Sequence record: PQ349265.1
Strand: one strand, 5' to 3'
DNA: 64,000 bases
Origin: Escherichia phage CJY920
Position numbers and translations under genes: made by a program. Each line of letters starts with the position of its first letter. Within the stretch, counting starts at the first letter, position 1. Of this stretch, positions 49,628 through 57,143 are shown piece by piece. The notes under the pieces were generated by a model. That model was given only the letters and a program-made list of their open reading frames with translations. It made no database searches and was not told the DNA's origin.

Positions 49628-50738
49628 AACAATATCAAAATTTAATTAAAGATATCCTGGAAAATGGCTACGAAACTGACGACCGTACCGGAACCGGTAC
49701 AATTGCACTGTTCGGTACTAAATTACGTTTTGATTTAACTAAAGGCTTCCCAGCGGTAACAACTAAAAAATTAGCATGGAAAGCTTGTATTGCTGAGCTC
49801 CTTTGGTTCTTGTCAGGTTCGACTAATGTTAATGATCTCAGAGAACGTACTCATGGCTCGCGTACTGAAGGTAAAACTATTTGGGACGAAAACTATGAAA
49901 ATCAGGCAATTTCTCTGGGATATTCTGATGGCGAACTGGGCCCTGTGTACGGGAAACAATGGCGAGATTTTGGTGGTATCGACCAGGTTGTAGAGATTGC
50001 AGAACGCATTAAGAAAATGCCTAATGACCGTCGTCAAATCGTATCAGCATGGAACCCGGCTGAAATCGACCAGATGGCTCTTCCACCATGCCACTGTTTT
50101 TACCAGTTCAACGTTCGTAATGGCTATTTGGATTTGCAGTGGTATCAACGTTCTGTAGATGTTTTCTTGGGTTAATTGAGGCCTGAGTATAAGGTGACTT
50201 ATACTTGTAATCTATCTAAACGGGGAACCTCTCTAGTAGACAATCCCGTGCTAAATGTTCTTTTGAACTAAATGCCTAACGACTATCCCTTTGGGGAGTA
50301 GGGTCAAGTGACTCGAAACGATAGACAACTTGCTTTAACAAGTTGGAGATATAGTCTGATCTGCATGGTGACATGCAGCTGGATATAATTCCGGGGTAAG
50401 ATTAACGACCTTATCTGAACATAATGCTTCCATTTAATATTGCATCATATGCTGCGTTAGTTCATATTGTAGCTAAGATGTGTAATCTTATTCCAGGAGA
50501 TTTGATATTTTCTGGCGGTAATACTCATATCTATATGAATCACGTAGAACAATGTAAAGAAATTTTGCGTCGTGAACCTAAAGAGCTTTGTGAACTGGTA
50601 ATAGGCGGATTGCCTTATAAATTCCGCTATCTTTCTACTAAAGAACAATTGGAATATGTTCTTAAACTCAGGCCTAAAGATTTCGTTCTTAAAGGTTACG
50701 AATCACACCCTCCTATTAAAGGAAAAATGGCGGTGTAA
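49624..50738 (+). CDS. td: Td thymidylate synthase, split: exon1 49624..50172, intron 50173..50426, exon2 50427..50738 (286 aa)
   Basis: TS motifs (PPCHCFYQF); in-frame exon junction ...VDVFLG|LPFNIASY...; intron ends with G. Confidence 0.93.
50173..50426 (+). ncRNA. group I self-splicing intron in td, 254 nt, no internal ORF
   Basis: 5' splice after exon U; core agggtcaagtgactcgaaac; 3' end ...aacauaaug; too short for an endonuclease ORF. Confidence 0.85.
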
Positions 50739-50761
50739 TTAATTATTAATTGTGAGGATAT

Positions 50762-51007
50762 ATGATTTTACGATTTAAAGATACTTCTGGTGTCGTTCTT
50801 TTTACACTTCCTAATCCAAGTGAGTTAGAAGTTCCAGGACCAAATCAGCCTATTATCATTTATGGCAAAAAATATTATACTCATAAAATGACTCGTGAGT
50901 ATTTTGATAATAAAATTTCTACGGTTAAAACTTCTTCAGATTGTTATTATGATATTACTGTTTTAACGGAAAAACAATATGACGAATGCAGAACTTTAGC
51001 AGTATAA
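50762..51007 (+). CDS. hypothetical protein, 81 aa
   Basis: ORF from table. Confidence 0.45.
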
Positions 51008-54047: not shown

Positions 54048-54087
54048 TATAATTACCACAAGGATGTGGTTAACTAAGAATAACGCT

Positions 54088-55656
54088 ATGTTTGATAATA
54101 TATACAAAAACGGAAAGTTTCTTCCATTTGGAGAAGAAAAACTTAAATCTAGACTAACAGAAGAAGATAAAGCTCTTCTAACTGATGGAATAGATTTTAA
54201 GCTCAATGTGTTCCAAATTATGGAAGGCATTGACATTAACGATCTAAAATGTGCAGTTTGTGGAAATTTCATTTCTCTGAAAACAGCAAAGAAACGTGTA
54301 TTTCCAGCAACATGTAGTAAATCCTGCTCAGGGATATTTTTCGCGGATAAGAGAATTCAAAGCCGTGATACAAATTTTGGCGGAAAAGAAAAATATAAAA
54401 AATATTTGTCTGAACTTCAACACAAAAATTCTTTAGAAAAATATGGAACAACTCATCAAAAAATTTCAAGAAATAAAAATAGAAAAACTTTAATTGAACG
54501 ATATGGGGTAACGCATAATTCACAATTAGAAAGTGTGAAAGAAGCGAGAAAAGTTATAGAAAACGGTAAATCAGTTGATATTCTGAATTCTAAAAAATCT
54601 CGCGAAAAATCTAAGAAGACTAAATTAAATTGGACTGAAGAATATAAGGCATCGTTATATTCATCTATAGGAAAATCTATTAAAAATAACGGTCATATTA
54701 ATCATGATATACTAGATAAAATCAATTACAAAATTTCTATAGAAGAACTACAACAATTAGCAAATTGTTCTCGGATGACGGCTTATAGAGCTCTTTCATC
54801 CAAAGGACTAATTGACGTTCATTATACTCAAAGTTCTATAGAGCAATTCATTTTAGATCTAGGATTTGATTGCGTAGAAACTAGAAAAATTATTCCTCCG
54901 TATGAATTAGATATTTACATTCCTGAGAAAAAATTGGCTATAGAATACGATGGAATTTATTGGCATTCTAGCGGGTCAAAGGAAACAGATAAAATTAAAG
55001 AAACTTATCATTTGATGAAGACAGAGATGTGTGAAGCACAAGGAATTCAATTACTTCACATCTTCGAAAATGAATGGATTGATGATACAAAAAGAGAGAT
55101 CTGGAAATCCATTATAAAGCATAAATTAGGATTATCAGAAAGAATACCAGCCCGAAAATGCAAAGCACGGTTTGTTAATAAGGATGAGGCAAAAGAATTT
55201 ATTAATAAGAATCATCTTCAAGGATTTTGCTCAGGAGCTCATACGTATAAAGGACTTTATTACAATAATGAGTTAGTTCAAATTATTTCTATCGGTAAAT
55301 CTAGATATAGCTCAGGTGATGAACTTTTAAGGATGTGTTCAAAATTAGGGGTTTGTGTTGTAGGAGGAGCCTCAAAATTATTAAAAGGAATTAATTGTCT
55401 ATCTTATGGCAATCGAAGATGGTGCAGTACATTATCAAATGTTTATGACTCTGTCATGGAATTTAGTCATATCTCTGAGCCATGTTATTGGTACGTCGAT
55501 AAAGGAGAGGTATTTCACCGCTCAAGCTATATGAAACATAAGCTTAAAAACAAGCTTAAAAATTATGATGATACAATAACTGAAGTAGAAAATTGTTATG
55601 CAAATGGTCTTAGAAGAATCTGGGACTGTGGAAATTTAGTTTACAGGACAAAATAA
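54088..55656 (+). CDS. putative freestanding homing-type endonuclease (Zn finger + HTH + Vsr/PD-(D/E)xK-like motif), about 522-530 aa
   Basis: CAVCGN...CSKSC; HTH-like SIEELQQLANCSRMTAYRAL; KLAIEYDGIYWHS motif; start may be 54064. Confidence 0.55.
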   Translation: MFDNIYKNGKFLPFGEEKLKSRLTEEDKALLTDGIDFKLNVFQIMEGIDINDLKCAVCGNFISLKTAKKRVFPATCSKSCSGIFFADKRIQSRDTNFGGKEKYKKYLSELQHKNSLEKYGTTHQKISRNKNRKTLIERYGVTHNSQLESVKEARKVIENGKSVDILNSKKSREKSKKTKLNWTEEYKASLYSSIGKSIKNNGHINHDILDKINYKISIEELQQLANCSRMTAYRALSSKGLIDVHYTQSSIEQFILDLGFDCVETRKIIPPYELDIYIPEKKLAIEYDGIYWHSSGSKETDKIKETYHLMKTEMCEAQGIQLLHIFENEWIDDTKREIWKSIIKHKLGLSERIPARKCKARFVNKDEAKEFINKNHLQGFCSGAHTYKGLYYNNELVQIISIGKSRYSSGDELLRMCSKLGVCVVGGASKLLKGINCLSYGNRRWCSTLSNVYDSVMEFSHISEPCYWYVDKGEVFHRSSYMKHKLKNKLKNYDDTITEVENCYANGLRRIWDCGNLVYRTK

Positions 55657-57143
55657 TGAGTACAGTTTTTAATACTAAACAGGTCGATGTTTTAAAAGAA
55701 CCTATGTTTTTTGGTTCAGGTCTTGGTATTGCGCGTTATGATATTCAACGGCATCGAGTATTTGAAGAACTTATTGAACGTTCGCTCTCGTTTTTCTGGC
55801 GTCCGGAAGAAGTAAACTTGATGATGGATGCTGCACAGTTTAATAAGCTTCCTCAGTATCAACAAAATATTTTTACTAATAATCTGAAGTATCAATCATT
55901 ACTTGATAGTATTCAAGGTCGTGCGCCGTCTGCTGTACTTATGCCATTGCTTTCAGACCCAAGCCTTGATACATGGGTTGCTACATGGACTTTTAGTGAA
56001 ACTATTCACAGTCGTTCATATACTCATATCATGCGAAATCTTTATACTGATCCATCGAAGGTATTTGATGAGATTGTACTAGATGAAGCTATCATGAAAC
56101 GTGCTGAATCTATCGGTCGCTATTATGATGATGTTCTGACTAAAACCCGTGAATGGGAAAATGCTAAAGAATTTACAGAACTAGCTAAAGAATCTCCTGA
56201 TGCTGTTTTTCGTTTAAATCGAGCTATTAAACAAGAAGCCGAAGCTAAACGTGCTTTAATGAAATCTCTTTACCTCTGTTTGCATGTTATCAACGCATTG
56301 GAAGCTATTCGTTTTTATGTATCTTTCGCGTAAAATGCGCCTTTAAGCAGTAATGCTTATCGAAAACTCCTTTAATTGCTGGAAAATCCAGAAATGGAAA
56401 ACTAGCAGCCAAGGTTTTGCTTGCACCTTTAATTAGTATCATATTATAAATATGATTATACTTTTAAGAGGATGCACAATTGCAAAGCAAGGTTCAACGA
56501 CTAGTCTTCGGACGTAGGGTCAAGCGACTCGAAATGGGGAGAATCCCTCTGGGATTGTGATATAGTCTGGTCTGCATAGTAATATGTAGCAGTTCATAAG
56601 AGAACGGGTTGAGAATTAGCGAGCTCAATCGAACATAACGGTACCTTTAACTTCCATAAGAACATGGAAATCATGGAAGGTAATGCCAAGATTATGAAGT
56701 TCATTGCTCGTGATGAACAGCTTCACCTTAAGGGTACCCAATATATTATTCGTCAACTTCAATCCGGTACTGATGGTGATGAATGGGTTAAAATTGCTCA
56801 AGAGTGTGAACAAGAAGCAGTTGATATTTTCATGGAAGTTAACCGTCAAGAAAAAGACTGGGCAGTTCATTTATTTAAAGATGGTGATGTTCCTGGATTA
56901 AATACAAATAGCATGTGGAGCTTTATTGATTACTTAACTGTATCTCGTATGAAACAGTGTGGTCTTCCATGCCCAATTACCGATGCTCCGGTTAAACATC
57001 CATATCCTTGGATTCGTGAATACCTTAATTCTGATAATGTTCAATCCGCGCCACAAGAAGTAGAACTATCATCTTACCTTGTAGCACAGATTGATAATGA
57101 TGTTGATGATAAAGTTATGATGAGTTTTAAAAAATATTTTTAA
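55656..57143 (+). CDS. nrdB: NrdB ribonucleotide reductase small subunit, split: exon1 55656..56331, intron 56332..56640, exon2 56641..57143
   Basis: Junction ...FYVSFA-C-TFNFHKNMEIMEGNAK restores frame (U + GU = Cys codon). Confidence 0.9.
56332..56640 (+). ncRNA. group I self-splicing intron in nrdB, 309 nt, no internal ORF
   Basis: Core gtagggtcaagcgactcgaaa and 3' end aacataacg shared with the td intron. Confidence 0.8.

Follow-up and report, generated by a model that had tools for sequence, protein, structure and literature searches.

The td and nrdB genes of Escherichia phage CJY920 (sequence record PQ349265.1) are each interrupted by a group I intron, both lying in the 64,000-nucleotide stretch of DNA analysed here, which we refer to as the window. 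These are very probably self-splicing introns of subgroup IA2, inserted at the sites used in phage T4, that have kept a conserved catalytic core but no homing endonuclease and stand in a late phase of the homing cycle. An initial annotation had claimed that the two introns, spanning 50173-56640, share three near-identical core segments and are closely related group I introns without open reading frames (ORFs). The span is exact, the td intron beginning at 50173 and the nrdB intron ending at 56640, and all three segments are found on the + strand at the places given for them.

Two ribozymes with a common catalytic domain

The two split genes are organized as follows (slashes mark exon junctions in the sequences quoted in the text).

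49624-50172, + strand: td exon 1 (thymidylate synthase), ending ...TTCTTGGGT, the last U being the 5' splice site
50173-50426, + strand: td group I intron, 254 nt, no ORF, RF00028 score 75.7 bits
50427-50738, + strand: td exon 2, joining in frame with exon 1
55656-56331, + strand: nrdB exon 1, ending ...TTCGCGT
56332-56640, + strand: nrdB group I intron, 309 nt, no ORF, RF00028 score 71.7 bits
56641-57143, + strand: nrdB exon 2, joining in frame with exon 1

Both introns match the Rfam group I model RF00028 over its full length (model positions 1-253) against a gathering score of 50. Rfam gave no other hit in the window; nrdD lies outside it. Joining the td exons gives an uninterrupted thymidylate synthase of 286 aa, in frame through ...DVFLG/LPFNIASYA... 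and 98.5% identical to T4 td across the junction. The nrdB exons likewise give an uninterrupted NrdB of 392 aa, in frame through ...RFYVSFA/CTFNFHK.... The assignment to group I and the naming of the two host genes are thus borne out. A scan of both strands found no ORF longer than 45 aa in either intron (the largest are 32 aa in td and 45 aa in nrdB) and none with similarity to an endonuclease, in agreement with the claim that both lack ORFs.

Pairwise alignment and group I structure modelling, the checks that had been proposed, show that the 3' halves of the two introns align and that each intron folds to a group I core. In both introns P1 has U.G as its last pair, at the 5' splice site, and the final base of each is G. 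The helices are positioned as follows.

td: P1 50166-72/50181-87; P2 50187-204; P3 50211-16/50320-25; P4 50221-25/50244-48; P5 50230-40; P6a hairpin 50257-68; P7 50281-85/50352-56; P7.1 50286-97; P7.2 50301-14; P8 50326-45; P9 50361-78; P9.1 50381-92; P9.2 50395-415; terminal G 50426
nrdB: P1 56328-31/56337-40; P2 56345-58; P3 56367-72/56536-41; P4 56377-82/56402-07; P5 56387-98; P6a-c extension 56417-90; P7 56499-503/56563-67; P7.1 56504-13; P7.2 56517-30; P8 56542-56; P9 56572-89; P9.1 56592-605; P9.2 56607-30; terminal G 56640

Minimum-free-energy (MFE) folds calculated without homology input recover P2, P3, P4, P5, P6/P6a, P7.1, P7.2, P8, P9 and P9.1 in both introns, and P9.2 in nrdB only, with z-scores of -3.1 for td and -2.5 for nrdB. 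P7.1 and P7.2 lie between the 5' strand of P7 and the 3' strand of P3; they are present in both MFE folds and are supported by covariation. These extra hairpins define subgroup IA2, the phage-type group I introns, and as modelled both the td and the nrdB intron possess them.

Covariation was examined in an alignment running from P7 to P9 of eight introns, comprising td from the window, N2 and PD112, nrdB from the window and T4, and nrdD from T4, Lv5cm and one Felixounavirus phage. For the 28 proposed pairs all 210 of 210 cells form standard pairs, and 13 of the 28 have changed on both sides; the observed measures were reached by none of 500 shuffles. When the partner strand was slid by 1-3 columns as a control, pairing fell to 29-40%. 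P7 is invariant in all eight introns, whereas P7.1, P7.2, P8 and P9 all covary, and the P7.2 pairs hold in all eight with a compensatory change in Lv5cm nrdD. P3, the pseudoknot partner, covaries too, being UCUAUC/GAUAGA in td, CUCCUU/GGGGAG in nrdB, and UCUGCC/GGCAGA and CCGGUC/GGCCGG in two types of nrdD intron.

The shared segments occupy defined places in this structure.

J6/7 and the 5' strand of P7: block AACGACUA
50300-50318 (td) and 56516-56534 (nrdB), + strand: motif 1, AGGGTCAAG(T/C)GACTCGAAA; the P7.2 hairpin (GGGUC-AAGY-GACUC, loop AAGU in td) and the GAAA joiner ahead of P3' (J7.2/3)
50348-50366 (td) and 56559-56577 (nrdB), + strand: motif 2, GATATAGTCTG(A/G)TCTGCAT; J8/7, the 3' strand of P7 (UAGUC), J7/9 and the first six bases of P9
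50418-50426 (td) and 56632-56640 (nrdB), + strand: motif 3, AACATAA(T/C)G; part of the 3' tail, which is UGAACAUAAUG at 50416-50426 in td, with its terminal G at the 3' splice site, and GAACAUAACG at 56631-56640 in nrdB, again with a terminal G

Motifs 1 and 2 have no other match in the window, even when three mismatches are allowed. By chance 0.03 and 0.02 matches would be expected, respectively, and two or more matches arose in none of 100 shuffles. As a word motif 3 is not significant, with three matches in the window against 2.06 expected, a number reached in 30 of 100 shuffles; it is meaningful only because it is placed exactly at the 3' end of both introns, where it is a single-stranded tail following P9.2. 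A fourth colinear block, AACGACTA, absent from the initial list, lies at 50278-50285 and 56496-56503. Altogether the introns have seven 9-mers in common, against 0.4 expected. The shared blocks are thus the guanosine-binding helix with its joiners, a peripheral hairpin specific to the family, and the tail at the 3' splice site.

How closely related the introns are depends on the region considered. The 3' halves are 68% identical (z = 12.8 against shuffles), and this catalytic domain, the identical core strands and the possession of P7.1 and P7.2 uphold the claim of close relationship. It does not extend to the 5' halves (P1-P6), which cannot be aligned and whose similarity is at the level of shuffled sequence (z = 0.4). 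Nor are the blocks equally informative. The segment GAUAUAGUCU, part of motif 2, is present in the Rfam group I consensus; it is a general group I feature, and therefore says nothing on the closeness of the td and nrdB introns. Motif 1 recurs unchanged in the nrdD intron of a Felixounavirus, a phage of another subfamily, and therefore reflects a family-wide constraint; a different but likewise paired hairpin takes its place in nrdD introns of the Lv5cm type. Between the blocks the helices of the two window introns are unrelated in sequence and structurally equivalent. Conserved blocks together with divergent but paired helices are to be expected of homologous ribozymes under selection, and not of a recent copy.

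The variable base of motif 2 (A50359 in td, G56570 in nrdB) could make a P9.0 contact with that of motif 3. The partners would be 50359-50425, A-U, in td and 56570-56639, G-C, in nrdB, and they would also pair in T4 nrdB and T4 nrdD. In the td introns of T4, PD112 and LH2, C lies opposite U, and in Alf5 G lies opposite A; we therefore do not claim P9.0 covariation, and regard it as a weak hint only.

Orthologous introns and the loss of their endonucleases

The region of the window corresponds to the Tequatrovirus frd-td-nrdA-nrdB block in the gene order of T4, and the phage is a T4-like coliphage of that genus. Its best matches are T4-like coliphages at 96-97%, and over 6.9 kb it reaches at most ~97% identity to any database record. 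At the gathering threshold the ORF-containing td and nrdB introns of T4 were not reported by Rfam, and their boundaries were therefore set by BLAST and motif search.

The window td intron has the insertion site of the T4 td intron, GGT/CTN (DVFLG/LPFN), and the same layout from P1 to P9.2, with a ribozyme 97.6-98.5% identical on both sides of the ORF. The T4 intron is longer, at ~1017 nt. Between GCUAAAU and UAAAUGCC it carries ~775 nt including I-TevI (2127-2901 of the T4 comparison sequence, L001), where the window has a 12-nt hairpin. The 8-bp P6a stem of T4 (UGUAGGAC/GUUCUACA) is missing in the window, and J7/9 is UGAU in place of UGCU in T4.

50257-50268, + strand: GTTCTTTTGAAC, the hairpin capping P6a in td (GUUC-UUUU-GAAC, 4-bp stem), in the place of the ~775 nt of T4 that include I-TevI

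The nrdB intron shares its insertion site with those of RB3 and T4 (GCGT/GT, in the Cys codon of FAC/TF), with flanks 91-97% identical. Its 3' domain is identical to that of RB3, with the same P9 variant (CUGCAUA/UAUGUAG) and the same end, AACAUAACG. The T4 nrdB intron ends in AACAUACG, one A shorter; its 3' end is GAACAUACG (L001 8140-8148), where the window, RB3 and PD112 have GAACAUAACG. The likeness of td and nrdB in motif 3 is therefore greater in this phage than in T4. By insertion site and near-identical ribozyme we take the window introns to be orthologues of the T4 td intron and of the RB3 and T4 nrdB introns, an identity that the initial annotation had omitted.

The window introns lack the I-TevI and I-TevIII regions, and with them the intron-encoded endonuclease of a mobile intron, whereas T4, RB3 and LH2 carry I-TevI or I-TevIII at the corresponding places. 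For nrdB the change can be read from the junction. The RB3 intron (1091 nt) holds I-TevIII as an intact gene flanked by two copies of ACAATTG, at 6363-6369 and 7148-7154 of its comparison sequence (L005), 785 nt apart. Exactly the 785 nt between these repeats, comprising all of I-TevIII, are missing from the window intron.

56476-56482, + strand: ACAATTG, the sole remaining copy of the 7-nt direct repeat that flanks I-TevIII in RB3, and the deletion junction

The ribosome-binding site of I-TevIII (its Shine-Dalgarno context), the TTG start and the last nine codons are retained. PD112 nrdB has an identical junction, confirmed by alignment, whereas T4 nrdB has a different, partial deletion of I-TevIII. 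The ORF-less nrdB form thus looks like the product of one deletion event that has since spread.

Elsewhere in the nrdB intron, P2 (56345-56358) is AAGCA/UGCUU in the window against AAACG/CGUUU in RB3 and T4, so that two compensated pairs, as well as the P5 loop, set the window apart from RB3, T4 and PD112. P9 (56572-56589) is the variant of RB3 and PD112, differing from T4 by one compensated pair and one G-C to G.U change. By these comparisons the ORF-less nrdB allele is a mosaic of lineages.

In td a series of states of I-TevI decay is found. The gene is intact in T4, RB3 and LH2. G28 has an additional 191 nt with a fragment of I-TevI (an internal deletion), Shinka has a 66-nt remnant, PD112 has only the 8-bp P6a stem of T4 with a tetraloop, and the window and N2 have the hairpin. 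These states lie at L008 2552-2992, L007 2552-2867, L002 2930-3187 and L012 474-1485 of the comparison sequences. In its td polymorphisms PD112 groups with the I-TevI-containing LH2, and the window groups with Shinka and G28; the ORF has therefore been lost from td more than once, that is at least twice.

The td hairpin region (50238-50292) is matched at 100% at the td locus of N2, SP21535, 236Ecol005PP and HMD-9. CE1 and BYEP01 match the 409-nt nrdB query used for PD112 as a single unbroken piece, equal in length to that of PD112 (404 nt). No listed record combines exactly both intron forms of the window; N2 has no nrdB intron, and the td deletion of PD112 is a different one. In many GenBank records (PD112, N2, Shinka, LH2 and others) the td and nrdB exons are annotated as separate proteins and the introns are unannotated.

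The ORF of I-TevI sits in the P6 loop, overlapping P6a and P7 (PMC3073962), and the homing cycle ends with degeneration and deletion of the endonuclease (PMC5009752). The ORF losses in td and nrdB fit that final stage. The findings are in large part known: the window carries the classical td and nrdB introns of T-even phages, stripped of their endonucleases, and many sequenced phages have similar forms. Sequence conservation among T4's td, nrdB and nrdD introns was reportedly described by Shub et al. in 1988 (PNAS), and endonuclease-deleted versions of the introns in wild T-even phages reportedly by Sandegren and Sjoberg in 2004 (JBC).

Free-standing endonuclease genes beside the introns

Both ORF-less introns lie within ~0.6-0.7 kb of a free-standing endonuclease gene, the proximity associated with trans or collaborative homing. 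The genes between the two introns are the following.

50996-51727, - strand: GIY-YIG homing-endonuclease gene, an I-TevI paralogue, between an nrdA.2-like gene and nrdA
51783-54047, + strand: nrdA, between td and nrdB as in T4
54064-55656, + strand: Hef-like free-standing homing-endonuclease gene, directly upstream of nrdB in the position of T4 mobE

The product of the first is 46% identical to I-TevI over its full length (E = 2e-71), with the Pfam GIY-YIG, NUMOD3 and I-TevI DNA-binding domains and matches to PDB entries 1mk0 (1e-39) and 1i3j (3e-7). No cysteines align with those of the zinc finger in the I-TevI linker. Oriented convergently to td and occupying the place of nrdA.1, the gene has its start 570 nt downstream from the site of the td intron. 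It is found beside td with an I-TevI-containing intron (LH2), with an ORF-less intron (the window and N2) and with no intron (Ozark). In Klebsiella phages of the genus Jiaodavirus the paralogue has 91-93% nucleotide identity, and in the one examined, KP179, it directly follows an intronless td; this suggests a recent transfer between genera. Since the paralogue stands beside td in all these states, we regard it as an independent mobile element and not as a partner of the td intron. That the adjacent paralogue drives collaborative homing of the td intron was considered and set aside, since the co-occurrence shows no link to the state of the intron.

The Hef-like ORF matches PHROG 3339, 'homing endonuclease' (3e-151), and its orthologue in N2 bears the annotation 'putative Hef-like homing endonuclease'. 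The stop of the window ORF overlaps the start of nrdB (TAATG) and lies 676 nt upstream of the site of the nrdB intron. This is about the distance of mobE in T4, where trans homing was demonstrated (PMC2790892). Both hef of phage U5 and mobE of T4 cut nrdB (PMC2988022, PMC2790892), and the defunct T4 nrdB intron is mobilized in trans by mobE (PMC2790892, PMC2988022). Collaborative homing, which pairs free-standing endonucleases with ORF-less introns, is an accepted model for the invasion of such introns by endonucleases (cited in PMC2988022). By analogy with U5 hef and T4 mobE, it is plausible that the ORF-less nrdB intron is co-converted with the Hef-like gene. The arrangement is like that of mobE and the T4 nrdB intron in placing an endonuclease-less intron near a free-standing endonuclease.

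The ORF after nrdB, at 57147-57581 on the + strand, has a weak GIY-YIG match. It lies in the position of T4 denA (endonuclease II), which is ordinary synteny, and is the third gene of GIY-YIG type within 7 kb.

Descent and exchange within the intron family

The T-even phages have a third paralogue, the nrdD (sunY) intron. Like the window introns, both its T4 and its Lv5cm/LH2 types have GAUAUAGUCU, the P9 hairpin and a GAACA tail, and the T4 type has the core block UAGGGUCAAGCGACYCGAAA. It differs in lying in another gene, in carrying I-TevII in the 3' periphery and not in P6, and in P3, P7.1 and P8; in the Lv5cm type P7.2 is different as well. The nrdD intron of Felixounavirus Alf5 (L014 388-1128) is an IA2 intron with an HNH gene in P6a, UAGGGUCAAGCGACUCGAAAU, a P7.1 of the Lv5cm type and a GAACA tail. 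Further related hits are listed in Vequintavirus-like, Aeromonas, Vibrio, Pseudomonas and Pectobacterium phages. The family and its modules thus extend well beyond the T-even phages.

One part of the td intron stands out in this comparison. Over 50215-50285 it is identical, at 71 of 71 positions, to the nrdD intron, with I-TevII, that is found in Lv5cm, LH2 and ~40 further Tequatroviruses (L009 ~2480-2551, and the same in L010). This block contains the GTTCTTTTGAAC hairpin and spans J3/4, P4, P5, P6, P6a, J6/7 and the 5' strand of P7. The 5' flank is only 37% identical to these nrdD introns and the 3' flank 58%, whereas between the nrdD introns of Lv5cm and T4 the 5' flank, block and 3' flank are 79%, 72% and 73% identical. 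A 55-nt probe from td P6 matched a td intron in four genomes only (SP21535, N2, 236Ecol005PP and HMD-9) and an nrdD intron in ~44 genomes. Three of the four genomes with the window type of td intron also carry that type of nrdD intron, with two match places per record, and in SP21535 the nrdD copy was confirmed. Evidently a whole ribozyme domain has moved between td and nrdD introns, in a direction that these alignments would allow to be either.

The account that we favour is that in T-even phages the introns of td, nrdB and nrdD descend from one ancestral intron. The shared blocks would be alike because of this common ancestry and purifying selection on the core, while the intervening P3, P7.1, P8, P9.1 and P9.2 would have diverged through compensatory changes. 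On transcription each intron is predicted to fold, bind free guanosine and excise itself by two transesterifications, with the U.G pair of P1 marking the 5' splice site and the terminal G the 3' site; splicing would restore the thymidylate synthase and NrdB reading frames. The nrdB copy would be an RB3-type intron from which I-TevIII was removed by the 785-nt deletion between the 7-nt direct repeats, and in the td copy the 4-bp hairpin would take the place of the I-TevI-bearing P6a loop. Neither should now be able to home on its own. Any spread would presumably occur by co-conversion, when the I-TevI paralogue or the Hef-like enzyme cuts an incoming genome.

Three points weigh against this account. 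The td hairpin, on comparison of the alleles, is not a simple deletion product of a T4-type sequence; its derivation from T4 by a single deletion fails, and PD112, which is a simple deletion, looks different. The td and nrdB genes of T4 are dispensable on normal hosts, so that intact exons argue less strongly for splicing than those of an essential gene would. Finally, the co-occurrence of the I-TevI paralogue with every state of td gives no support to a td homing pair.

The identity with nrdD offers one way in which the td hairpin might have arisen. Tentatively, the ORF-less td intron of the window may be the product of ectopic gene conversion between paralogous introns, and not of a plain deletion. 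The nrdD P4-P6 would have been copied into an I-TevI-bearing td intron, precisely excising the endonuclease gene and leaving a working ribozyme. Recombination between T4 intron cores has reportedly been obtained in the laboratory (Bryk and Belfort 1990).

The shared blocks themselves might be kept alike by continuing gene conversion or recombination between the intron copies of one genome, which we consider unlikely. Exchange within the family is clear from the td block and its dissimilar flanks, and T-even td, nrdB and nrdD introns have an almost identical P9 hairpin, whereas that of the Felixounavirus relative differs by four compensated pairs. Yet the longest exact match between td and nrdB is 11 nt, and wholly different helices lie between the blocks; a search for a recent td-nrdB conversion tract found no identical stretch longer than this between the window introns. 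Selection alone accounts both for the identity of motif 1 in another subfamily and for the invariance of P7 everywhere.

It is similarly improbable that the ORF-less state is ancestral, with I-TevI and I-TevIII invading later in the T4, RB3 and LH2 lineages. The td hairpin would suit such a history, in that no single deletion derives it from T4 and its clean 4-bp stem stands in a UAAAU/UAAAU setting like that of the naturally ORF-free P6a of T4 nrdD; invasion of ORF-less introns by free-standing endonucleases is moreover an accepted model (cited in PMC2988022). The nrdB intron speaks for loss, its junction being a deletion remnant with the I-TevIII start, Shine-Dalgarno context, last nine codons and one copy of the repeat, while T4 nrdB has its own partial deletion. 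Three other independent deletion states in td show that loss is frequent. That the similarity arose by chance, or that the interruptions are split or pseudogenized genes or assembly artefacts, is scarcely credible: motif 3 alone is no commoner than chance, but motifs 1 and 2 are expected only 0.02-0.03 times, both RF00028 matches are full length, both exon junctions are in frame and conserved, and the same architecture recurs in dozens of independently sequenced phages.

In annotation, td should be assembled from its two halves into a single intron-containing gene, and so should nrdB. On the favoured account of descent and endonuclease loss, the locus is a compact illustration from nature of how the homing cycle ends, with two endonuclease-less introns each beside a free-standing endonuclease gene. 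Together with the P4-P6 of td shared with nrdD, this makes it usable for tests of trans-homing and of domain exchange. The identity of P4-P6 with nrdD introns is the only part possibly worth further work. If the td intron did arise by conversion from nrdD, it would reveal a natural route by which homing endonucleases are purged and ribozyme domains are shuffled as modules.

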